64,000 nucleotides of DNA from Candidatus Yanofskybacteria bacterium (GTDB lineage Bacteria; Patescibacteriota; Minisyncoccia; 2-02-FULL-40-12; IGHO2-01-FULL-4-A): positions 167,754 to 231,753 of the forward strand of contig JACPNJ010000005.1 of assembly GCA_016185545.1 (NCBI GenBank), in the 5' to 3' direction. Positions 3,107-30,150 of the stretch are shown piece after piece. The notes beneath the pieces were generated by a model. The model ran no database searches and was not told where the DNA came from. It saw nothing but the letters and a program-made list of their open reading frames with translations. The position numbers and the translations under genes are program-made. The first letter of the stretch is position 1. Each line of letters starts with the position of its first letter.

Positions 3107-4768
3107 CTAATCAAGTATTTTAAAAGGTTCGTCTTTCTTTTGCGGCTTTGGCGGCGGGGGTATCAGCCCGCCTTGCGGCAAACCGCCTAGCATCGGCGTT
3201 GTCGCTTGAGACATTGTTCTCTTGGGCTCGTAAAGACGCTCGCCGGGAGCATGTTTCTTGTACTCCAACTCTATGCTTCTGCGGATATTTAGCAGAAGAC
3301 TTACAATTGAAAATTTCATCGGATATATTTTGAAAACATTCAGATAACCCTTAACGAAAAAATAAAAAATGAAATAAAGTTTTGCCAGAGGCAGTTTGAA
3401 CAGAAATTCGGCAAATTTCCTGGAATATAAGAACGGGAAAGCAAGAAATACCGTTCCCAGCAACGACATGTTGCTTTGCATTCTTTTTTCCAGTGGGGTA
3501 AAACAATTTAACGGACTCTCGTTTTGATAACTTGCGTTAAGATTACCGAAATCAGAATAATCAAACCAGCCGTTTTCTACCACATAGTCGGAAAGTTCAC
3601 AGCCCGGATAAGGATAAACGGGCGAGAATTCTCCGAAAGTAACTTTGGATTTTATATTCAACTCCAAAGAATCAAAATCGTAATCAATCGCCGTTTTTCC
3701 CTGCTCGGTCATTACTTCACTTTTTATCGGAATGGCCAAGATTGAATTGGCAAAAGTTTTGACGCCCATTTCATTGCAAAGCGCGAAGGCCTCTTCAATT
3801 TCAGGCCGGGTCATGTGGCGTTTTATGATTTTTTCTCTGATATAATCGTTGCCCGACTCAATGGACATTGTTAATGAATGAAGGCCGGCTTTCTTCAGGG
3901 CGGTAAGATTCTCTCTGGTCAAAACGTTGCATCGCGTTAAGCAGAAAAACGGCAGGCCGACTTCTTGAGGGTAAATTTCGGCAAATTCAGCAAGCCAAAA
4001 ATCAACGCTCCGGCTTAAAATAAACATATCGTCATAAAATTTAATGAACTGGGTAGGATACCTGTGTTTTAATTCTTTAAGTTCGGCGCATAATCGTCTA
4101 GGAGAATATCTTCTGTATATCGAACCCAAACCGCGCTGCTGGATGTTCGTTTTGGGTTCAAAACAATAAGTACATTCAAACGGACAGCCCCACGAACTCA
4201 TGAAACAGCGCATTGGAAATTTGCCTAAATGCGTTTTGCTGTAAACAATCTCTCTGTCATAAAAAGGTAGCCCATCCAGAGGGTGAGTTAATTTGTGTCT
4301 GAAACGATTCCGATTCGCTTCCGTTTCGTTTTTCCATTTGGAAAGCCAAGTCTCTCTGGTAAAAATATTAGGAATATTACCGGCATCTTCTCCGGCCTGT
4401 AAAGCTTTAAGCAGTTTTGGCCAAGCAACATCGCATTCGCCTACACCAATCGCGTTTAAATCGCTTTCTTCAATAATATCGGGATTGAAGGTCGGATGAG
4501 GCCCACCCATAATTGTAATAATATTTTTGGAATAATCCTTTACTTTGTCGTTAGCTTTCAGAAAAAATTGCTGTTCGCCAGTTTTTACACTGCAATGTGC
4601 GACTATATCCGGTTTGATACGCTTTAATTCTTCGCCCAAGTCGTCCTGACTCAAAACGGTTAAAAATGTCGCGAATCCTTCCCGTTTTGCCAAGGCTGAC
4701 ATCAGCATTACACCCATCGGGTCAATGTAATCAACGTTATTTACAACAAAAAGAATTTTGTCGGCCAC
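3107..4768 (-). CDS. B12-binding domain radical SAM enzyme (class B radical-SAM methyltransferase-like)
   Basis: N-terminal B12-binding-like fold, then a CxxxCxxC cluster (WGCPFECTYCFEP); 553 aa with a Pro-rich C-terminal tail. Confidence 0.75.
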   Translation of the reverse strand: MADKILFVVNNVDYIDPMGVMLMSALAKREGFATFLTVLSQDDLGEELKRIKPDIVAHCSVKTGEQQFFLKANDKVKDYSKNIITIMGGPHPTFNPDIIEESDLNAIGVGECDVAWPKLLKALQAGEDAGNIPNIFTRETWLSKWKNETEANRNRFRHKLTHPLDGLPFYDREIVYSKTHLGKFPMRCFMSSWGCPFECTYCFEPKTNIQQRGLGSIYRRYSPRRLCAELKELKHRYPTQFIKFYDDMFILSRSVDFWLAEFAEIYPQEVGLPFFCLTRCNVLTRENLTALKKAGLHSLTMSIESGNDYIREKIIKRHMTRPEIEEAFALCNEMGVKTFANSILAIPIKSEVMTEQGKTAIDYDFDSLELNIKSKVTFGEFSPVYPYPGCELSDYVVENGWFDYSDFGNLNASYQNESPLNCFTPLEKRMQSNMSLLGTVFLAFPFLYSRKFAEFLFKLPLAKLYFIFYFFVKGYLNVFKIYPMKFSIVSLLLNIRRSIELEYKKHAPGERLYEPKRTMSQATTPMLGGLPQGGLIPPPPKPQKKDEPFKILD

Positions 4769-5193
4769 ATTTCACCTTCTCTCCAGCCATAATTTAATTT
4801 TCAAAAAACTTGTTATTGAGAGTAACACGAACTATCATATTTATCAAATTCTTCAGGGGTCAAAAATTACAAACCAAGCTCACCCCCCTAATTTTTCTTC
4901 CTGTATCATGCCTTCATTACAAATTGCGGTCACTGGCTAAATTGTCGGACACAGACCAGTTCTCCGTTTGCCGCTTGCCCGCCTAAATTTTGCTTCGCAA
5001 AACTTGGGCGGGCTGACGCGTTTTCCGACTAGTCCTAGTGTTACCCGACAATTCTTAACGCCAGTTCCCTTATTTGTATAATCGGCAGATAATGTCAGAA
5101 AAATAAGGGGGTTCCGCTTAGGTTGGGTTTGTAATTTTTTAATTTTAGAGTAATTTTGGAGATTAATTTTGGAGATTCAATCTCCAAAGAGTG

Positions 5194-5354
5194 GGCTTGG
5201 TGGGCAATGCCTCATAGCACCGTCAAAAGAGTGGGTTGCACGGTTTGCGAGCAGTATAATAGTAAAACACTGCGAGCAAAATCCACGCTTTTGACGGAAT
5301 GCAGTCCGCTCGCTGGGCGGACAAATGGTGCTATGAGACATTGCCCACCAAGCC
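5194..5354. repeat. long imperfect inverted repeat / structured non-coding element
   Basis: 'gggcttggtgggcaatgcctcatagcaccgtcaaaag' pairs with 'cttttgacgg...ggtgctatgagacattgcccaccaagccc' (~29 + 10 bp arms); internal hairpins; tandem 'aattttggagatt' x2 just upstream; no ORF. Confidence 0.55.
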
Positions 5355-5391
5355 CCGTTTAGCATTTATTAAAATGTTGTATAATAAAAAT

Positions 5392-5778
5392 ATGGAAAAC
5401 GTAAATCTAACCACAATGTTTGCCTCTGCTATTATACTCTCGGGGATTTTTGTTCTTAATTTGATTGTAGGTATGTACTACGGTTTTGGCGTTCGGCATT
5501 ACTGGTTTTTCCAGACATTGCATTTTTTGGGCGGGTTTTTTGTGGCTATGTTTTTCTCAAGCCTTTTCAACTCCACCGTTTTGATTTTAATAGGTCTTGG
5601 CGTCATCAGCATTTTGTGGGAATCGGCGGAGTTTTTGATTGCGTCTATTCCGACGCTTTCAAAATACGTAAAAGAGCAGTTCCGGCTTAAAAATGTGGAC
5701 TACAAATGGGCGGACGCCTTATTTGATCTTGCTTTAAATTCCACCGGCGCGATTCTGTTTATCTATATTTTTAAATGA
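5392..5778 (+). CDS. small integral membrane protein (hypothetical)
   Basis: hydrophobic segments; start moved to Met MENVNLTT because the 5' part of the ORF overlaps the inverted-repeat structure. Confidence 0.45.
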   Translation: MENVNLTTMFASAIILSGIFVLNLIVGMYYGFGVRHYWFFQTLHFLGGFFVAMFFSSLFNSTVLILIGLGVISILWESAEFLIASIPTLSKYVKEQFRLKNVDYKWADALFDLALNSTGAILFIYIFK

Positions 5779-6299
5779 CCAAGTGTATTTTTCTTGACCG
5801 TGATGGCGTGCTTGTTAAGAGCGTTTTAAGGAACGGGCAATTGGACGCGCCGTTTAATTTGGCTGAATTCGAAATTGTAAAGGATGCGCCGGACGCAGTA
5901 ACAAATTTTAAAAAATTGGGTTATCTTTGTATCGTAATTTCTAATCAGCCGGGTATCTCTCTAGGCCAGATTAGCCAGACGGAAGTTGAACTAATGAATC
6001 AAAAACTTCTAGCCCAATTGCTATTGGACGATATCTACATTTGTCCCCACTCTCATCTTGAGAATTGCGAGTGTCAAAAACCAAAAATCGGCCTTTTTTT
6101 AAAAGCAATCCAGAGATGGGAGATTGATCCCAAAATCTCGTTTATGATCGGAGACCGAGATACAGATATTCAAGCGGCCAAAAAAGTTGGTTGTCGCAGT
6201 ATTTTAATAACTGGCGGAGACGATTCTGGATTAACCGAGCCCGATTTTTATGCGACCAGTTTGACTGAGGCGGTTTTGGTGGTAGCTCAAAATAGCTAA
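5775..6299 (+). CDS. gmhB: D-glycero-D-manno-heptose 1,7-bisphosphate phosphatase-like HAD-IIIA phosphatase
   Basis: FLDRDGVL HAD motif I and the CxH...CxC zinc motif (CPHSHLENCECQKPK) typical of GmhB/histidinol-phosphatase-like enzymes. Confidence 0.7.
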   Translation: MTKCIFLDRDGVLVKSVLRNGQLDAPFNLAEFEIVKDAPDAVTNFKKLGYLCIVISNQPGISLGQISQTEVELMNQKLLAQLLLDDIYICPHSHLENCECQKPKIGLFLKAIQRWEIDPKISFMIGDRDTDIQAAKKVGCRSILITGGDDSGLTEPDFYATSLTEAVLVVAQNS

Positions 6300-6497: not shown

Positions 6498-6833
6498 TTA
6501 TGGGTTACCAAGTGCGTTCCAAAATTTTGCACTCATCTCTTTAGCACTAATTTTAGGATAAACCCCAATCCTGCCGTAATGGAGTATCAAAAAAGTACGA
6601 TCATCACAAGGAATTACTTTTAAATTTTCTGGTCGAACATCATTTTCATCTAAAAACCTCATTAGTCTATTACTTTTAACCCCCGAGGAATTCAGATCAT
6701 TGACATCCAAGAAAAAACCGTGCCACTTTATTTTTTTTCTATTTTTCTCTGCGACTTTTCCATTACCCAAACTTTTTTCTTTCATAGTTTGTTTCACTGT
6801 TTGTTTCACTTTTTCCTCTTTATTCAATTGCAA
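6498..6833 (-). CDS. hypothetical protein (TTG start)
   Basis: 111-aa ORF lying directly downstream (on the minus strand) of promoter-like repeat R1. Confidence 0.4.
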   Translation of the reverse strand: MQLNKEEKVKQTVKQTMKEKSLGNGKVAEKNRKKIKWHGFFLDVNDLNSSGVKSNRLMRFLDENDVRPENLKVIPCDDRTFLILHYGRIGVYPKISAKEMSAKFWNALGNP

Positions 6834-6917
6834 AAGACCAATCTGCCGGGGCTTTTATGGCTCCCCAGCATCATAAGTAGGTTAGCATACGAGCCTATGG
6901 CGTGTCAAGAGTAAAAG
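6818..6917 (-). promoter_or_regulatory. repeat R1 copy 1 (promoter-like cassette)
   Basis: ~95-bp sequence duplicated at 8404-8500; the minus strand carries TTGACA-N18-TAACCT. Confidence 0.5.
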
Positions 6918-7924
6918 GTAATGTGCAAGCACATATGGCGGTTTTCTCCTAACATGGAGAAATGGCCATATCTATGTCAAAAACAATCAAAGAAGAACGT
7001 TTAAGATGGGTACAGCCCATAGTCAGAAAAGAGGTAAAGTTGGTTGATGCGGCAAGGGTTTGTCTCTACGGCAAGCGTACTCTTGAGAGATGGGTTGCCG
7101 CATACAAAAAGAATGGTGAAAGCGGTTTAGAACCCAGGTCTACAGCACGCAAGACCCAAAACAACGAGACACCGATTCGTATTAAAGAGCATGTAATTGC
7201 GCTCCGCAAACAAACCCATAAATGCGCTTTGAAATTGTACTGGCACATGAAGAAGGAGGGATTGATTGTTCCAGCAAGAACCATCGGTAAAATCCTTAAA
7301 CAAGAAGGGCTGGTGCGAAAGTATCGGGTTAAACGAGTAAAGTATAAATATCTCAAAGCCACGCTCAAACCAGGCGAACTTGTGGAAATAGATGTTAAAT
7401 ATGTTCCCGGAGCTGTTGCGGGACGCCAATACTTTCAATATACCGCTGCCGACAAGGCTTCGCGGTGGAGACATCTTGAAATTTATGACGAGCAGGTCAA
7501 TCATCACAGCGTTTTGTTCCTTTCAGAAATAATCAGAAGGGCGCCATTTCATATTTTAGCAATCAAAACGGACAACCATTCAACATTTACTAATTACTAC
7601 ACCGGTACCAACAAAAGAAGCGACCTCTTGGTAAAGTCGCTTCATGCACTGGATATTGCCTGCCGAGAATATGGCATCAGACATTATTTAATTGACCCGG
7701 GCAAGCCGGCACAGAATGGCACAGTAGAACGAAGCCATCGTGAAGACCAAGAAAAGCTTTATGATAAACATTCGTTCGTTTCTGAAAAAGAGTTGCGCTA
7801 CCGCGTCAGATTGTGGAATATGTACTACAACAACCTTGAACACTGCGGGTTGAACGGAAAAACGCCAAATGAGTTTATCGCAAATTATCAACTAACCCAT
7901 CCGCCAAATGTGCCTGCCTAGAAC
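6918..7924 (+). mobile_element. IS481-family insertion sequence
   Basis: ~1 kb; terminal inverted repeats 'aatgtgcaagcacatatggcgg' vs the reverse complement of 'ccgccaaatgtgcctgcctagaac'; single DDE integrase-type transposase; interrupts an R1-R2 cassette that is intact at 8404-8529; short A-rich target duplication. Confidence 0.75.
6962..7921 (+). CDS. IS481-family transposase (integrase catalytic core, DDE)
   Basis: N-terminal HTH followed by an rve core with D (VEIDVKYV), D (IKTDNHSTF) and E (NGTVERSH). Confidence 0.85.
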   Translation: MAISMSKTIKEERLRWVQPIVRKEVKLVDAARVCLYGKRTLERWVAAYKKNGESGLEPRSTARKTQNNETPIRIKEHVIALRKQTHKCALKLYWHMKKEGLIVPARTIGKILKQEGLVRKYRVKRVKYKYLKATLKPGELVEIDVKYVPGAVAGRQYFQYTAADKASRWRHLEIYDEQVNHHSVLFLSEIIRRAPFHILAIKTDNHSTFTNYYTGTNKRSDLLVKSLHALDIACREYGIRHYLIDPGKPAQNGTVERSHREDQEKLYDKHSFVSEKELRYRVRLWNMYYNNLEHCGLNGKTPNEFIANYQLTHPPNVPA

Positions 7925-7957
7925 AAAAAAACAAAACCGCCAAATGGCGGCAAATCA
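7925..7957 (-). terminator. repeat R2 copy 1 (rho-independent terminator)
   Basis: minus strand: ccgccatttggcgg hairpin followed by ttttgtttt. Confidence 0.6.
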
Positions 7958-8042
7958 GTTGGTTAGTAATTTTTGATAAAGTAGGCCCAAGCGAAGTCGT
8001 AAAGACACTCCATAATAAAAAACGAGGTGTTTCCTCGTTCAA

Positions 8043-8390
8043 TTAATTCAACCTGTTTACTATAAAAGTTTTATCTAGTTTTTCTCCTAACATGGGGGAA
8101 TATTTTTTTGTTTTCCAGAAACCAGGTTTTTCTTTAGAAACCTTCCACCTGCTACCATTAGATAAAGTGACTATCCAATAATCTATTTCCCTAGTTATTG
8201 CAAATTGAGGGACGGTTGTTTCTATAAAACTATATGACTCAATTTTTGTTATGCTGTATTTGGAGTTTTCTAGAAGTACTCTTTGTATTACTTGACCGTT
8301 TCTCACAAAATAATAAAATGCTGGAATAGCAAATATAAGAAAAAATATCAGCATTTTTGCCCAAGGATTAATACTATTAAGTTTTAACAC
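8043..8390 (-). CDS. hypothetical membrane-anchored protein (GTG start)
   Basis: 115 aa with an N-terminal hydrophobic helix; downstream of R1 copy 2. Confidence 0.4.
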   Translation of the reverse strand: MLKLNSINPWAKMLIFFLIFAIPAFYYFVRNGQVIQRVLLENSKYSITKIESYSFIETTVPQFAITREIDYWIVTLSNGSRWKVSKEKPGFWKTKKYSPMLGEKLDKTFIVNRLN

Positions 8391-8403: not shown

Positions 8404-8500
8404 TTTATTCAATTGAAAAAGATCAACCTGCCGGGGCTTTTATGGCTCCCCAGCATCATAAGTAGGTTAGCATACGAGCCTATGGCGTGTCAAGAGTAAA
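8404..8500 (-). promoter_or_regulatory. repeat R1 copy 2 (promoter-like cassette)
   Basis: near-identical to 6818-6917. Confidence 0.5.
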
Positions 8501-8529
8501 AAACAAAACCGCCAAATGGCGGCAAATCA
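8501..8529 (-). terminator. repeat R2 copy 2 (terminator; contiguous with R1 here)
   Basis: identical to 7925-7957; follows the stop of 8549..8863 on the minus strand. Confidence 0.6.
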
Positions 8530-19444: not shown

Positions 19445-20746
19445 TTGGATACACTACCAAATATAATCATGCCAAATAAAAACAAAATCGCAGAAAGGAA
19501 AACCTGTCGAATCTCCGGCGAAAAACTACGGTCGCTTTTTTCTTTGGGCAAAACCTATATTTCTGACTTTGTGTCACCTGACAAAAAACCGCATTTACCG
19601 CCGATCGATCTTAAACTTTGCCTTGCTCACAAATCAGGATTAGTTCAATTGGCCCATACAGCCCCAAGCGATGAAATGTATAGACACTATTGGTATAGAT
19701 CGGGCACTAATGCCACTATGACCAAAGAACTTGAAGAGATCGCACGCTCAATACAGAACCTTATCAAAACCAAACCGGGTGATGTTTTTATTGATATCGG
19801 CTGTAATGACGGCACTCTTTTGAGTTTTTTGGATAAAGGACTCATTCGAATCGGCTTTGACCCGGCTCAAAACGGTTTTAAGGAGCTTTCGAGCGAACAT
19901 GCTAATTTAATAATTGATGACTACTTTAGTTATAACGCTCTAAAAAAAAGCAAATACGGCAACAATAAAGCCATGGCAATAACATCTATTGCGATGTTCT
20001 ATGACCTGGAAGACCCAAATAAATTTGTGCGAGGCATTGCTCAAACCTTGCACAAAGACGGCTTGTGGGTACTGCAAATGAGCTACCTGCCGTTAATGCT
20101 CGAACAACTTGCTTTCGATAATTTGTGTCATGAGCATTTAGAATATTACAGCCTTGAATCCTTAAAATATTTATTGGATAAACATGGCCTAAAAATAGTA
20201 GACTGCCAGTTCAATGATGTTAATGGGGGAAGTTTTCGGGTGTATATCAGAAAAAACAATGCCGACGAATCAAGATTTTCCACTGCCCCATATCGATCAG
20301 TGGCTTCTTATCGAGTACTGTCGACTCTAAGCCACGAAAGATCTTTGAATCTCAAAAGCAAGAAAACCTACTTTGATTTCTACAAAAAATCTCTTGATTT
20401 AAAAAGGCAAACTGTGAGTTTTATAAAAAAGGAGAAAGCCAGGGGTAAAACCATTTGGGGCTACGGCGCCTCAACCAAGGGTAACACACTCTTACAGTGG
20501 TTTGGTTTGGATGGCTCGCTCATAGATGCCATCGCCGAAAGATCACCGGCCAAATTCGGCCTCAAAACCGTAGGCACCAACATTCCCATCACATCCGAAG
20601 AAGAGATGAGAAAAGCCCAACCCGACTATCTTTTAATCATGCCGTGGCATTTTATAAAAGAATTTAAGCAAAGAGAGGCAGAGTATTTAAAAAAAGGCGG
20701 CAAGTTCATCGTCCCATGCCCCAAGTTTGAAATAATTAGTATATGA
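19445..20746 (+). CDS. SAM-dependent sugar C-methyltransferase (TylCIII/NovU-like)
   Basis: N-terminal CRISGEKL...LGKTYISDF block; methyltransferase motif VFIDIGCNDGTLL; C-terminal C-methyltransferase-type domain. Confidence 0.6.
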   Translation: MDTLPNIIMPNKNKIAERKTCRISGEKLRSLFSLGKTYISDFVSPDKKPHLPPIDLKLCLAHKSGLVQLAHTAPSDEMYRHYWYRSGTNATMTKELEEIARSIQNLIKTKPGDVFIDIGCNDGTLLSFLDKGLIRIGFDPAQNGFKELSSEHANLIIDDYFSYNALKKSKYGNNKAMAITSIAMFYDLEDPNKFVRGIAQTLHKDGLWVLQMSYLPLMLEQLAFDNLCHEHLEYYSLESLKYLLDKHGLKIVDCQFNDVNGGSFRVYIRKNNADESRFSTAPYRSVASYRVLSTLSHERSLNLKSKKTYFDFYKKSLDLKRQTVSFIKKEKARGKTIWGYGASTKGNTLLQWFGLDGSLIDAIAERSPAKFGLKTVGTNIPITSEEEMRKAQPDYLLIMPWHFIKEFKQREAEYLKKGGKFIVPCPKFEIISI

Positions 20747-20917
20747 CTTACGCGCTTGAGCCACGAAGCCCAAGAAATGTAGGGCTTGGCGTGGCTCAAG
20801 CCACAAGGGTTTACCCAATTTCTTCGTTAAAAGGCTCCGGTTTGGCTCACCATACCTCTAGTATGGCTCGCCCAATCCTCGCCTTTTGCCTCGAACTTGG
20901 CTAAACGCATAAGTCCT

Positions 20918-20945
20918 ATAGCAATGTCCAGTTCAACTGGACATT
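20918..20945 (+). terminator. rho-independent terminator-like hairpin
   Basis: atgtccagttcaactggacat followed by tttattaat. Confidence 0.5.
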
Positions 20946-20948
20946 TTA

Positions 20949-21344
20949 TTAATACTTCTCATACGATTTTTCCTGAACAATATCGGACTTTAATAGCAGA
21001 TTAATTTCTCTCCAAACCGCCGCTCTTTCATCATTATTTTTAAAAGCGGCGCGGGCTGCTTCTATGAATTCCGGCCCAAAATCGCCATTGCGTTCGCAGA
21101 ACCGCTTTTTATCTTCAATATCCCAGCCCTTGGCGCTTAACTGGCGCAGTTTATCAAAAAGCCGTTTGAGTTCACCTGATGGCTGAATGCGTTTATTAAA
21201 AACTGCCAGATGTGTTTTGAGTTCGTGTTTGACGTTTTTTAGTTTTTCTTGATCCTTGATTCTTTCTGATTTCACTTCCAAAATCGCGATTTTATCCATC
21301 AATTCAGCCGGAGAAATAGGTATTAAGATTTTATTTTGTGTCAT
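20949..21344 (-). CDS. hypothetical protein
   Basis: 131-aa ORF; no motif recognised. Confidence 0.45.
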   Translation of the reverse strand: MTQNKILIPISPAELMDKIAILEVKSERIKDQEKLKNVKHELKTHLAVFNKRIQPSGELKRLFDKLRQLSAKGWDIEDKKRFCERNGDFGPEFIEAARAAFKNNDERAAVWREINLLLKSDIVQEKSYEKY

Positions 21345-27483: not shown

Positions 27484-28584
27484 ACGAGTCATCATTCTCA
27501 TTATATTAGCATGGTCTTCTCTGGCAATCTCGTATTTGCTTTTATTCAACTGGCTTGGATCATCCCGTACGAGACAGGTTGCGACCCTGTCGCAACCGTG
27601 CCTAGTTAGTTTATCATTATCTCCAACAGGGACACTCCGACCACCGGCCTTTTTTGTGTGTTTATTCGTCGTGTCTCGTACGGGATCATCCCTAGGAAAC
27701 ATATTGGATTTAAAACCGCATTCAACGCCCAATTGACTTAAAATCTTAAGAGTACTGTCATTGTAAGAATTGGCAGGATGGGCCATGTCCACGGGCGGCC
27801 TGCCGCAAACTCTTTGTATGTGTTCATAATTTTTTTGATACTCTTCTTGCTGTCGTTCAAAAGGAAGTTCGGCAAGCATCATGGGGTGTGAATATGAATG
27901 CAGTCCGATTACATGGCCTTGCCTATTTAAGTAAGCAAGGTTTTCATTTGACATCCATATGTTTTTAGAAAGATCGGCCAAATTCAACCCTTGGTCTTGA
28001 ATAATCGCATCCATAATTATTTCAAATTCCTCACGGCTTAACACGCGATCCCTAATCAAACGAAAGCGCATGTCATTGGTTGAGTAAAACGGGAAAGTCT
28101 TGGAATACCTTACCATATCGGTCTCTTCTAAAACTTTCCTGGCATTATTTCCAAATTTTGATTGAAAAATTTTATCAAAAAAAATATTGTAAAAGTCATC
28201 AATATCTTTAAAAAACTTAGAGCGAAAAACCCGATAAATTTCAAATTTGCCAAGGCCGCCCTCAAATACACTGGAATAGACGAACCAAAATGCTTTTAGG
28301 TTGTACTTGTCCAAAACCGGCAAGACAACATCAAATTGACATAATAGCCCATCATCCAGGGTTATGCAAACATCCCGATTGGTTAATTGGTTCGCCCCCA
28401 ATCGCTTAAGCCATTCTTTAGGATCAAGTATCCGATCTAATCCTACAAACATAAGAATGGCTTCAAAATCCGACATTGATATCGAACCTTGCCCTTTGTA
28501 ATGTTTCCGTTCGTCATGAAAATGATGGAACATTATCCCGTGAGCAACCGAACTGAGATATTTTTTTTTAGATAATTCGCTCAA
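27457..28584 (-). CDS. polysaccharide deacetylase (NodB-homology domain); the 3' ~230 nt of the ORF reads through elements B3 and A5
   Basis: ITLDDG NodB motif and HSYSHP His motif; the frame stays open through the repeat elements, so the true C-terminus is uncertain. Confidence 0.6.
   Translation of the reverse strand: MSELSKKKYLSSVAHGIMFHHFHDERKHYKGQGSISMSDFEAILMFVGLDRILDPKEWLKRLGANQLTNRDVCITLDDGLLCQFDVVLPVLDKYNLKAFWFVYSSVFEGGLGKFEIYRVFRSKFFKDIDDFYNIFFDKIFQSKFGNNARKVLEETDMVRYSKTFPFYSTNDMRFRLIRDRVLSREEFEIIMDAIIQDQGLNLADLSKNIWMSNENLAYLNRQGHVIGLHSYSHPMMLAELPFERQQEEYQKNYEHIQRVCGRPPVDMAHPANSYNDSTLKILSQLGVECGFKSNMFPRDDPVRDTTNKHTKKAGGRSVPVGDNDKLTRHGCDRVATCLVRDDPSQLNKSKYEIAREDHANIMRMMTRPVRGTTGN
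27564..27684 (-). repeat. family B element, copy B3
   Basis: cccgtacgagaca...tgtctcgtacggg; in tandem with A5. Confidence 0.8.
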
Positions 28585-29725
28585 TTTTTTTAATATCTAA
28601 ATAATCCTCGGAAGAAAAACTTAAACCCGAGGTAATTTTTTGAAAGCCCTCGTAAAAACGCGGCTCACTGACAAGGTTATGAATATTGGCAGTTGGTACA
28701 AGAATCAACATTTCATTATTAACCCATGCTTCTTTATTGGAGTCGTTGGAACCCATAAGAGCTTCGTGCAGTTTGTCGCCGACACGATCTCCAATGTATT
28801 TTATTTTTATCACAGCCCCAGAAGACCGCTGCTTCAGTCGTGGATGATTGGGTCTTCTGGGGCTGGATTCCGCCCCACGGTCAAGCCGCCAAGCTTGACT
28901 GTGGGTGATGGTACCACGGGCTTGGCCGTGGGGCTCCATTTTTTTTCCAGAGTAATATTTTTTTATAAATATACTGGCTAGATCTCCCAAGCGGATTGAC
29001 GGCATTTTCAAAATAAAAATTTCACCGCCCGAACAAAGCTGGGCCGCTTTCAGAGTCAAACTAACGGCTTGTTTTATGGACATGAGAAAGCGGGTCGCGT
29101 CTTTGTTGGTAACATTAATCGCGCCGCTGGCTTCTACTTGTTTTACCCACATCGGCAGTACTGAACCATCGGCCCAGGCAACATTGCCGAATCTTACACA
29201 GGCAAGCTTCATTTTATCTCCCAGAAAAAAACTGGAATTTATAAAAAGCTTCTCCATCATAAGCTTGGAAGCGCCAAGCACATTTAAGGGGTTGGCAACT
29301 TTATCCGTGGAAATGGCAATAATTTTTTCAACACCGGCGTGCAAAGCCGCGTCAATAATATTATGTGAACCGACAATGTTAGTTTTCATCGCTTCTGACG
29401 GATTATACTCGCAAAACGGAACATGTTTTAAGGCGGCGGCGTGAAAAACTATGTCTACATTTTTAAAAGCAAGATGTAAACGCTCTTGGTCTCTTATGTC
29501 TCCAATCAACATCCTTAAGTTTTTTGGGTAACGAAGCGCCTCCAATAGGTGGTATTGGCGTGTTTCATTTCTGGATAAAACCCTGATCTGCTTCGGCTTG
29601 GACTTTAAAAGCTGGCGAACCAGTTCTGCGCCAATACTACCAGTGCCTCCAGTTACCAAAATGGTTTTATTTTGAAACTCGTTAATCATAGAAAACAACT
29701 TAAAAATGCAAACCTCAAATCTCAA
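28568..29725 (-). CDS. UDP-GlcNAc 4,6-dehydratase (PseB/FlaA1/CapD-like), with an in-frame 43-aa insertion
   Basis: ILVTGGTGSIG...VLSRNE...HAAALKHVP...YIGDRVGDKLHEAL; 385 aa versus ~335 for homologs. Confidence 0.75.
   Translation of the reverse strand: MRFEVCIFKLFSMINEFQNKTILVTGGTGSIGAELVRQLLKSKPKQIRVLSRNETRQYHLLEALRYPKNLRMLIGDIRDQERLHLAFKNVDIVFHAAALKHVPFCEYNPSEAMKTNIVGSHNIIDAALHAGVEKIIAISTDKVANPLNVLGASKLMMEKLFINSSFFLGDKMKLACVRFGNVAWADGSVLPMWVKQVEASGAINVTNKDATRFLMSIKQAVSLTLKAAQLCSGGEIFILKMPSIRLGDLASIFIKKYYSGKKMEPHGQARGTITHSQAWRLDRGAESSPRRPNHPRLKQRSSGAVIKIKYIGDRVGDKLHEALMGSNDSNKEAWVNNEMLILVPTANIHNLVSEPRFYEGFQKITSGLSFSSEDYLDIKKIERII
28811..28939 (-). repeat. GC-rich triple-hairpin element inserted in-frame in a coding sequence
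   Basis: 129 nt at ~62% GC versus ~40% background; stems gccccagaagacc/ggtcttctggggc, cccacggtcaagc/gcttgactgtggg, ccacgg/ccgtgg. Confidence 0.6.
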
Positions 29726-30150
29726 AATGTAATTTAAAATTCCAAACTATTTTCTGCCTTTCATGGTTAGTACGCCAGCGCCAATAATTTTAGAAATTTC
29801 TTCGGCTTCTTTAAGCAATGGGTTAATTTGATTTCTTAAATTAGGCGTACTTTCAATGAGCAAAATCAACCAATATTTTGTCTCATTAGAACTCTTAAGA
29901 GCAATCTGAAAAAATTTTAAATAATCCAATTTTGAGCTAGCGGCTCGAGCTTCGAAAACGTTGGCTCCAACTGAAGTTGCAGATCGAATCAGTTGATCGG
30001 CTATCGCCCACAAATTCCTACTTTTTCTTACTTCTCCACAAAGTTTAATTATTGCTAAAGAAAAATCAATAAGCCGTTTATTAAATTGCATTTTAAAATT
30101 TACATTTTCATTTTGCATTTTGAGATTTGAATTTTGAATTGGGTAATTTT
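29703..30150. mobile_element. inverted-repeat-bounded module carrying a four-helix-bundle (23S rRNA IVS-type) protein gene
   Basis: AT-rich inverted-repeat arms with core caaatctcaaaatg (29703-29746; 30092-30150, reverse complement) flank the ORF. Confidence 0.55.
29747..30118 (-). CDS. four-helix-bundle protein (23S rRNA intervening-sequence protein family)
   Basis: WAIADQLIRSATSVGANVFEA...YLKFFQIALKSSNETKYWL is characteristic; the first 9 codons lie in the inverted-repeat arm, so the probable start is MQFNK (~30091). Confidence 0.7.
   Translation of the reverse strand: MQNENVNFKMQFNKRLIDFSLAIIKLCGEVRKSRNLWAIADQLIRSATSVGANVFEARAASSKLDYLKFFQIALKSSNETKYWLILLIESTPNLRNQINPLLKEAEEISKIIGAGVLTMKGRK

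Follow-up and report, generated by a model that had tools for sequence, protein, structure and literature searches.

Genomes of the candidate phyla radiation (CPR, or Patescibacteria) measure about 1 Mb, are streamlined, and are thought to be poor in repeats and in known non-coding RNAs (ncRNAs). We asked what fills the gap at 4769–5391 of a 64,000-nt stretch of Candidatus Yanofskybacteria DNA (assembly GCA_016185545.1, contig JACPNJ010000005.1, positions 167,754 to 231,753 of the forward strand; this whole stretch is hereafter the window), where a B12-binding radical-SAM gene (3107–4768, − strand) and a 128-aa membrane open reading frame (ORF; 5392–5778, + strand) point away from each other. 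We found that the gap holds two structured modules, D1 (4860–5141) and D2 (5193–5355), and we read D2, with a probability of roughly 0.6, as one copy of an undescribed repeat family, non-autonomous and selected for its structure, that is interspersed in intergenic DNA and can be compared with ERIC, REPIN and miniature inverted-repeat transposable elements (MITEs). The original prediction, made from the sequence alone, had proposed either a structured ncRNA or a hairpin-ended remnant of a mobile element. Something of each half survives, since the fold covaries and the DNA behaves as a repeat with mobile behaviour; the region is, however, neither hairpin-ended in the telomere-like sense nor a recognisable insertion sequence (IS) remnant.

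D2 is a three-way-junction hairpin with covarying stems

D2 spans 163 nt on the + strand and folds as a three-way-junction hairpin that scores 177.6 bits (E ~1e-45) against R1, a covariance model built from 14 copies. The closing stem, P1, is formed by 29-nt arms at 5193–5221 and 5327–5355 that are 97% complementary and 105 nt apart, and this is the long hairpin with ~29-bp arms that had been predicted. It is followed inwards by P2 (5222–5237/5280–5295) and by P3 (5245–5255/5269–5279), which contains tandem G.A and a GUAUAAU loop, and on the other side of the junction GGAAUGCA lies P4 (5304–5309/5317–5322) with its loop TCGCTGG (5310–5316). Across the family the unit measures ~157 nt. P1 is a closing stem of 18–29 bp; in P2, CCGUCAAAAG-R-GUGGAUU pairs with AAUCCAC-G-CUUUUGACGG; in P3, UUGC-GA-GCAGU pairs with ACUGC-GA-GCAA, again with tandem G.A and with a loop that begins GUAUAAU; then follow the junction GGAAYRCA, a P4 of 5–6 bp with a UCGCUGG loop, and the junction AARU leading back to P1.

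This fold is exceptionally stable relative to shuffled sequence. For 5180–5360 the z score was −10.4 (+ strand) or −12.3 (− strand), and −11.7 when DNA parameters were used; the whole 624-nt gap reached about −11 on either strand with no shuffle folding equally well, and a sliding fold scan placed the most stable 200-nt segment of all 64 kb within the gap. The stems are also conserved as pairs. With a hand-drawn structure, 94.6% of cells were paired compared with 83.4% in shuffles, and 22 pairs had changed on both sides (reached by 0 of 500 shuffles), while slid controls paired only 36–43% of cells (all <44%). In a model-based alignment of 21 copies, which leans towards the covariance model used to build it, 97.5% of cells were paired and both partners had changed in 18 pairs, again matched by 0 of 500 shuffles.

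Covariation is strong in P1 and P4: at least 7 different, fully complementary stem sequences surround the invariant P4 loop, and the sequence of P1 is variable too. P2 and P3 show little variation among copies, partly through ascertainment, the copies having been found through a P2 22-mer; a diverged copy at locus L024 replaces P2 with another helix of unrelated sequence and keeps the same architecture. Because the stems change by compensated substitutions and the loops and mismatches are fixed, the folded single strand would be the object of selection. The + strand is mildly favoured as the functional one, because the conserved purine-purine oppositions would be pyrimidine-pyrimidine on the other strand, and the counts of G.U and A.C pairs (14 vs 8) are too weak to decide between the strands. 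The window copy is alone in having the two P1 mismatches turned into Watson-Crick pairs.

The family also varies in its parts. Size variants at L024, L041 and L037 carry extra hairpins nested at fixed places, P3 is missing altogether at L027, the L031 copy is chimeric, its left part being D1-like, and P4 is broken in the second copy at L034. P1 type, P3-loop type and P4 stem occur in shuffled combinations among copies, which implies recombination or gene conversion among them. The pentamer GCGAG occurs 5–6 times per unit and at unit borders; as a genome-wide signal it was rejected, its background matching expectation (~1 per kb) with clusters only at D2 copies.

D2 matches no known RNA and does not code for protein

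Rfam 15, whose families include 6S, SRP, RNase P, tmRNA, riboswitches, ribozymes, group I/II introns, HEARO, OLE, GOLLD and ROOL, gave 0 matches at the gathering threshold across the whole 64 kb, and at E<10 on 4600–5600 it returned only microRNA- and snoRNA-type noise that reflects a long hairpin; no Rfam match overlapped D2 in 7 other loci, and ARAGORN found no tRNA or tmRNA. The reported absence of rRNA, tRNA, RNase P, tmRNA and SRP signatures is thereby upheld, and two of the checks put forward with the original prediction, an Rfam scan and a comparative alignment, yielded no housekeeping RNA and a fold that is conserved and covarying in relatives. Its further statement that the gap lacks a convincing ORF agrees with our finding of short mechanical ORFs only, none longer than 68 aa, in 4769–5391. 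No reading frame is open across all D2 copies and the indels among copies are not multiples of 3, so D2 is ruled out as protein-coding.

Several more specific identities were rejected. Hammerhead and other ribozyme cores are not present (by eye and by Rfam), and by eye a K-turn does not fit, as the tandem G.A of P3 lacks the 3-nt bulge and the P1 mismatches lie two pairs apart. No intrinsic terminator or terminator-like site was found in 4600–5600, and the 3′ flanks of copies are unrelated and not U-rich. A riboswitch or cis-regulatory leader is contradicted by neighbours that differ at every locus and by copies in both orientations, also between convergent genes. Against a retron or a diversity-generating retroelement (DGR), a Pfam scan of 58 window ORFs returned no RVT domain, and the other copies are flanked by unrelated housekeeping genes. 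A phage or plasmid origin was dropped after searches of plasmids, phages and viral contigs gave no match, the D2 22-mer included for viral contigs.

Copies are dispersed among unrelated intergenic sites

A 22-mer from D2, used as the query in metagenome contigs, found 17 loci on groundwater-type contigs, and the neighbouring genes differ at every locus. R1 recovered 21 copies in 19 loci with scores of 43–184 bits. These loci (given here by L numbers) comprise two Candidatus Yanofskybacteria metagenome-assembled genomes (MAGs), another MAG (L044) and groundwater metagenome contigs; judged by these sequences, the hosts of the family are Parcubacteria, namely Candidatus Yanofskybacteria and its relatives. 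At L034 a TPR membrane-protein gene stands between two inverted copies spaced 1.9 kb apart, at L040 the rpmF-nusB-rnc operon stands between two inverted copies (the second partial) with a spacing of 1.5 kb, and L024 carries its second, diverged copy (46.8 bits), giving 2 copies in 7 kb, 3.4 kb and 12 kb of examined DNA, respectively.

Copies occur between co-directional, divergent and convergent genes in either orientation, some of them after terminators, and their orientation is unbiased with respect to the transcription of the flanking genes: of the copies in co-directional pairs, 4 are sense and 3 antisense. They often lie 9–40 nt from a start codon, on either side. Neighbours tested with Pfam include the rpmF operon, the TPR membrane protein and a transketolase subunit, and others judged by eye from sequence are polA-like, tgt-like and RNase J-like genes. 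No conserved promoter stands upstream of the copies and no conserved terminator downstream, the flanks being unrelated among copies. Short-read contigs begin or end in D2 or a few nucleotides away from it (L001, which starts at window position 5301, L029, L035, L043 and L048), as is expected of assemblies at a repeat or a long palindrome.

D2-bearing genomes carry further palindromic elements. At L036, another long hairpin of ~220 nt (2114–2334) lies ~750 nt from the D2 copy and gave only plant-microRNA-like Rfam noise.

The block is inverted, absent or retained at the same site in relatives

Relatives with the same genes show several states of this site. L024 (Yanofskybacteria GCA_016181175.1) has the same gene pair around a 625-bp gap whose flanks align at ~90%, and its central ~520 bp aligns only as the reverse complement, so that D1, linker and D2 are inverted as one block. 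At L026 the same two genes lie 139 bp apart with the flanks joined, an empty site. At L048, where the orthologue of the membrane ORF is 77% identical, D2 stands in the window's position and orientation and ends 34 nt before a conserved TTGTATAAT-N6-ATG, with a closing stem P1 that is different and fully compensated. On the L050 contig (orthologue 76% identical), D2 is missing from the 127 nt of upstream DNA that are present. Judged from these four states, the block is old at the site, has been rearranged there and is dispensable for both flanking genes.

In L024 a GIY-YIG endonuclease gene (3364–3639) separates panB from the radical-SAM gene; the window lacks it, another sign of this neighbourhood as a mobile-DNA hotspot.

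D1 is a rod-like palindrome joined to D2 by a tandem-repeat linker

D1 (4860–5141) is a rod-like imperfect palindrome of 280 nt, delimited by inverted repeats and fold, with the inverted termini TCAAAAATTACAAACC (4860–4875) and GGTTTGTAATTTTTTA (5126–5141). It folds as a single rod (z −7.9) with a GC clamp as its apex, and the homologue at L024 is one rod too (z −6.3). Between the two, the outer ~70 nt of each arm is conserved with compensated differences, and the centre (~100–130 nt) differs yet is palindromic in both. The GC-clamp hairpin GCCCGCC...GGCGGGC has 17-nt arms, 88% complementary, around a 3-nt loop. It had been recognised correctly and placed at 4986–5022; its true position is 4977–5013, 9 nt to the left, and it is not conserved in L024.

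The linker consists of 3.2 copies of a 13-nt tandem repeat, TTAATTTTGGAGA (5139–5177, + strand; TRF score 57, with direct repeats), the tandem array that the original prediction had reported. It is probably a local duplication, because the corresponding sequence in L024 is only loosely similar. The last repeat unit and its inverted copy form the small hairpin TTTGGAGATT-c-AATCTCCAAA (5168–5188), which is 10/10 complementary and present in minimum-free-energy folds.

The ends of D1 recur around other copies. In one D2 subtype (L028, L033, L037, L040 and L043), the termini TCAAAAATTACAAACC and GGTTTGTAATTTTT stand on the outside as inverted flanks, and TCAAAAATTACAAACC is the left end of composite units that end in D2 in the window, L044, L043 and L024, the second L024 copy included. 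In consensus form, TCAAAAATTAY / RTAATTT(TT)GA bounds both D1 and the 'GCGAGGCCATTATGCC' D2 subtype (L028, L033, L037, L040, L043 and L044).

The terminus motif TCAAAAATTAC(A/T)AACC is found again at 7959–7976 (− strand) of the window, at 7071–7094 of L024 and at 7461–7476 of L044. It adjoins a repeated promoter unit in all three genomes, ~10 nt upstream of its −35 in L024 and L044, and may be an A/T-rich UP-like element or a preferred junction.

Conserved promoters border the block

On the left, the conserved flank at 4769–4859 holds the 5′ leader and promoter-like region of the B12/radical-SAM gene on the − strand and lies outside the inserted material; it aligns at ~90% with L024 and with the empty site L026 as far as TTTATCAAATTC at 4840–4851. 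A promoter scan returned promoter-like sites that border the block, among them TTGACC/TATGAT at 4863–4834 (− strand), and none inside D2; a further promoter-like site lies at 5055–5082 (+ strand). On the right, the flank at 5356–5391 (+ strand) is conserved in L024 and L048 and holds the core promoter of the 128-aa membrane ORF. Here TATAAT (5380–5385) stands 6 nt before the ATG at 5392, TTGTATAATAAAA(A)TATGG is kept in L024 and L048 with similar sequences in L026 and L050, and TTGTATAAT lies 6 nt before the ATG in three genomes (window 5376–5394, L024 5990–6003 and L048 186–203). No Shine-Dalgarno sequence precedes the membrane ORF in the three genomes compared, and by its sequence the mRNA is probably leaderless.

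The right-hand neighbour of the gap is this membrane ORF and not gmhB, as had been proposed; the gmhB-like HAD phosphatase gene (5775–6299) follows it. A protein identical to the product of the 128-aa ORF is assigned by NCBI to a Candidatus Yanofskybacteria MAG (CPR/Parcubacteria). Exact-match look-ups with the radical-SAM protein (V or M start) and with the 128-aa ORF returned nothing. The best relative of the radical-SAM gene among GTDB genomes is 58% identical and not syntenic. What remains of the window forms a large surface-glycan cluster (~60 kb), with the D1+D2 gap at its edge.

A probable dispersed repeat selected for its fold

The gap between the divergent genes is filled with ~500 bp of self-complementary, non-coding repeat DNA in two adjacent modules, and the D1 palindrome is bounded by the TCAAAAATTAC-type inverted termini that flank one D2 subtype. 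In the model that we favour, the window would hold a composite of D1 and D2 inserted between two divergent promoters. Copies have spread to unrelated intergenic sites, have been gained, lost and inverted at orthologous sites, recombine with each other into mosaics of P1, P3-loop and P4 and accept nested hairpins. The selected strand may be DNA, while a trans-acting enzyme mobilises or recombines the unit, or RNA made by read-through, or both; in the RNA case, stable RNase III-type hairpins would lie in untranslated regions read through from neighbouring promoters. The data above show that D2 is a repeat with a conserved fold and no coding capacity and that the site is polymorphic; how copies spread, by which enzyme and with what effect at the RNA level is what we infer in this model.

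Several observations weigh against a simple dispersed repeat. Copy density is low, with one D2 in the 64-kb window (by blastn and by R1 with filters off) and none in ~40 kb of the CPR loci L025, L026, L046 and L047. Target-site duplications were not seen at any junction (window, L024, L028, L033, L037 and L044), nor in comparison with the empty L026. Among the 58 window ORFs scanned against Pfam, there is no fitting transposase (Y1/RAYT), reverse transcriptase or invertase, the sole mobile-element gene found in the window being one rve-type IS transposase. The window's D2 and the other D2 subtype lack the TCAAAAATTAY inverted termini. The core of D2 is near-identical between the window and L048 at the orthologous site, while the adjacent spacer has diverged; this looks like purifying selection for a host function, and gene conversion would look alike. 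Finally, 5 positions keep purine-purine oppositions (A.G, G.A or R.G) in 12–14 of 14 copies and the loops are invariant; A.G/G.A mismatches and loops conserved in this way are seen more in functional RNAs than in simple palindromes.

Because density is low, target duplication and a linked transposase are missing and the core is near-identical, we keep a minor but real share of our credence for D2 as a new class of functional RNA, single-stranded DNA ligand or protein-binding element of CPR/Parcubacteria. A dedicated protein would then bind the UCGCUGG/GUAUAAU loops, the tandem G.A and the repeated GCGAG boxes, and D2 would be under purifying selection at orthologous sites, for example as the platform for a new RNA-protein system of these reduced genomes.

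Alternative explanations

We regard it as unlikely that D2 is the gene for a new functional small RNA, trans-acting or protein-binding, that is present in few paralogous copies per genome and whose repeat features are secondary. Such a gene would suit the three-way junction, the covariation of P1 and P4, the invariant loops UCGCUGG, GUAUAAU and CAYGGUUU and the five purine-purine mismatches, as well as the core kept between the window and L048 while the flanks diverged and the L024 copy that retains the architecture with a different P2 sequence. It fits poorly with copies that share neither promoter nor terminator, have unrelated flanks and often lie 9–35 nt from start codons on either side and in either orientation, some of them chimeric or broken (P3 is missing in L027). 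L026, otherwise syntenic, has no copy, and the excess of G.U pairs that slightly favours one strand (14 vs 8) is a weak signal.

The block could also be a DNA-level regulator of the two divergent genes, either an inverton carrying a promoter or a protein-binding or cruciform platform, and this we consider improbable. Two related genomes carry it in opposite orientations between identical flanks, but the inverted block has no bounding inverted repeats and the window has no invertase gene. It abuts both core promoters, and in the window the D1 terminus gives a TTGACC −35-like hexamer to the radical-SAM gene; the ancestral promoters are nevertheless intact in the conserved flanks, and presumably work without the block in L026. 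Within the block there are the conserved TATAAT of the P3 loop and the promoter-like site at 5055–5082 (+), yet the promoter scan was negative inside D2, no −35 is conserved, and insertions in L024, L041 and L037 break the spacing to the P3 TATAAT. Although the surrounding 60 kb form a surface-glycan cluster, a usual target of phase variation, other D2 copies lie between convergent genes or after terminators.

Still less weight goes to a remnant or non-autonomous derivative of an HUH (IS200/IS605-type) transposon, or to a scaffold like that of reRNA, omega-RNA or bridge RNA. No TnpA, TnpB, IscB or IS110-type gene lies beside the 21 copies, going by the flanking ORFs, a subset of which was checked with Pfam; the variable parts are paired stems and not guide-like loops, and the inverted termini that some copies have are foreign to IS200/IS605 elements. 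What speaks for kinship is that structure is kept while stem sequence is not, as in hairpins recognised by Y1 transposases, that GCGAG recurs in each unit and at unit borders, and that D2 stands at one end of composite units starting with TCAAAAATTACAAACC (window, L024, L044 and L043). An assembly artefact or chance palindrome is refuted: assemblies do tend to break at D2, but the unit is found in independent assemblies (NCBI MAGs, JGI, ENA and Logan) with consistent covariation, and no shuffle folds as well.

Other features of the window

Two more strong folds, at 20.75 kb and 28.8 kb, were rejected as relatives of D2 (≤14 bits). The former, at 20750–20950, is a 200-nt fold (z −7.5) between convergent genes for a C-methyltransferase (19445–20746) and a DUF6165 protein (20949–21344); it scores ≤9.5 bits with the D2 model, and its mini-hairpin GCGAGCCATAC...GTATGGTGAGC on the − strand resembles D2 borders. 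The latter consists of three GC-rich hairpins (for example CAGCCCCAGAAGACC...GGTCTTCTGGGGCTG) at 28810–28940 (z −5.3) inside an ORF for a PseB/Polysacc_synt_2-type dehydratase (28568–29725, − strand). The Pfam match of the dehydratase ends at residue 258 (profile position 248/293), right at the start of the hairpin block, with the reading frame still open; by its sequence the block looks like an in-frame palindromic insertion in a coding gene, similar to the palindromic elements (RPEs) of Rickettsia.

A promoter/5′-leader unit of ~120 bp (TTGACAC...TATGCTAACCT, − strand) occurs twice, at 6826–6913 plus 7929–7957 and at 8410–8528, and in both places a small − strand ORF lies downstream. Of the two units, the first is split by the rve-type IS (~6914–7928; transposase 6962–7921; ends GCAAGCACATATGGCGG / CCGCCAAATGTGCCTGC), and a partial copy of the IS end lies at ~8088–8110. 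Kinship of D2 with this IS was rejected, the IS ends (GCAAGCACATATGGCGG) being unrelated.

From 9000 to 64000 the window is almost entirely one cluster for surface-glycan/nonulosonic-acid biosynthesis, large for a CPR genome, with 3 NeuB paralogues, 2 DegT aminotransferases, 4 cytidylyltransferases, several radical-SAM/SPASM enzymes, an ABC-2 exporter, a PMT_2 transferase, epimerases and glycosyltransferases. Within it, 29747–30118 (− strand) encodes a 123-aa '23S rRNA intervening sequence protein' (PF05635, the DGR Avd fold family); the scan of 58 window ORFs gave no reverse transcriptase.

Significance and comparison with known systems

As a dispersed repeat, D2 would mark hotspots of recombination and rearrangement, here at the edge of the ~60-kb surface-glycan cluster, and would explain breaks in MAG assemblies. 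It may alter the expression of adjacent genes, because copies lie 9–40 nt from start codons. The covariance model offers a handle for finding the enzyme or binding protein that recognises D2, and if D2 were a true functional RNA, it would join a mere handful of lineage-specific ncRNAs known from this large radiation of uncultured bacteria. We found no literature on CPR MITEs, CPR REPINs or the D2 motif.

D2 shares with structured ncRNAs of the Rfam type a covarying multi-stem fold, conserved loops, G.A motifs and insertions at stem tips, but it has no match in Rfam 15 even at E<10 and shows no consistent context, orientation, promoter or terminator. With the Correia/NEMIS MITEs of Neisseria it has in common a small size, the absence of coding capacity, presence/absence polymorphism and insertion near promoters and start codons. 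Inserted Correia/NEMIS units are co-transcribed, and their long RNA hairpins are plausible RNase III substrates, as is predicted for D2. D1 and some D2 copies have terminal inverted repeats (TCAAAAATTAY...RTAATTTTTGA), and the window's D2 lacks them; no target-site duplication was seen, and D2 has a covarying internal structure, which is unexpected for a passively decaying MITE.

REPINs, alongside which ERIC and NEMIS are named, are extragenic non-coding hairpins in which the hairpin is the unit of selection and which have been proposed to be moved in trans via a folded single strand (PMC3116915). D2 resembles them as an extragenic hairpin unit that is selected as such and in forming clusters by insertion into or next to existing units, and in our model it too would be moved in trans as a folded single strand. 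A REPIN, however, consists of two short REPs (~20–40 nt), reaches hundreds of copies and has a cognate RAYT flanked by REPs, whereas D2 is one complex fold of ~157 nt at low density, with no RAYT found in the DNA examined.

ERIC sequences, also called IRU, are imperfect palindromes of ~130–160 nt that are intergenic, occur in either orientation and across species, and have size variants produced by insertions at fixed internal sites. They have a modest copy number in some genomes, and to our knowledge no transposase. D2 is likewise an intergenic imperfect palindrome in either orientation, with size variants and no known transposase. The two have no sequence relationship, a blastn search of D2 against 5,426 complete E. 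coli genomes giving no match, and their hosts differ, D2 belonging to CPR/Parcubacteria and ERIC to enterobacteria and vibrios. Whereas ERIC is a simple foldback, D2 keeps its purine-purine mismatches conserved and branches at a three-way junction, from which P4 projects as an asymmetric side hairpin.

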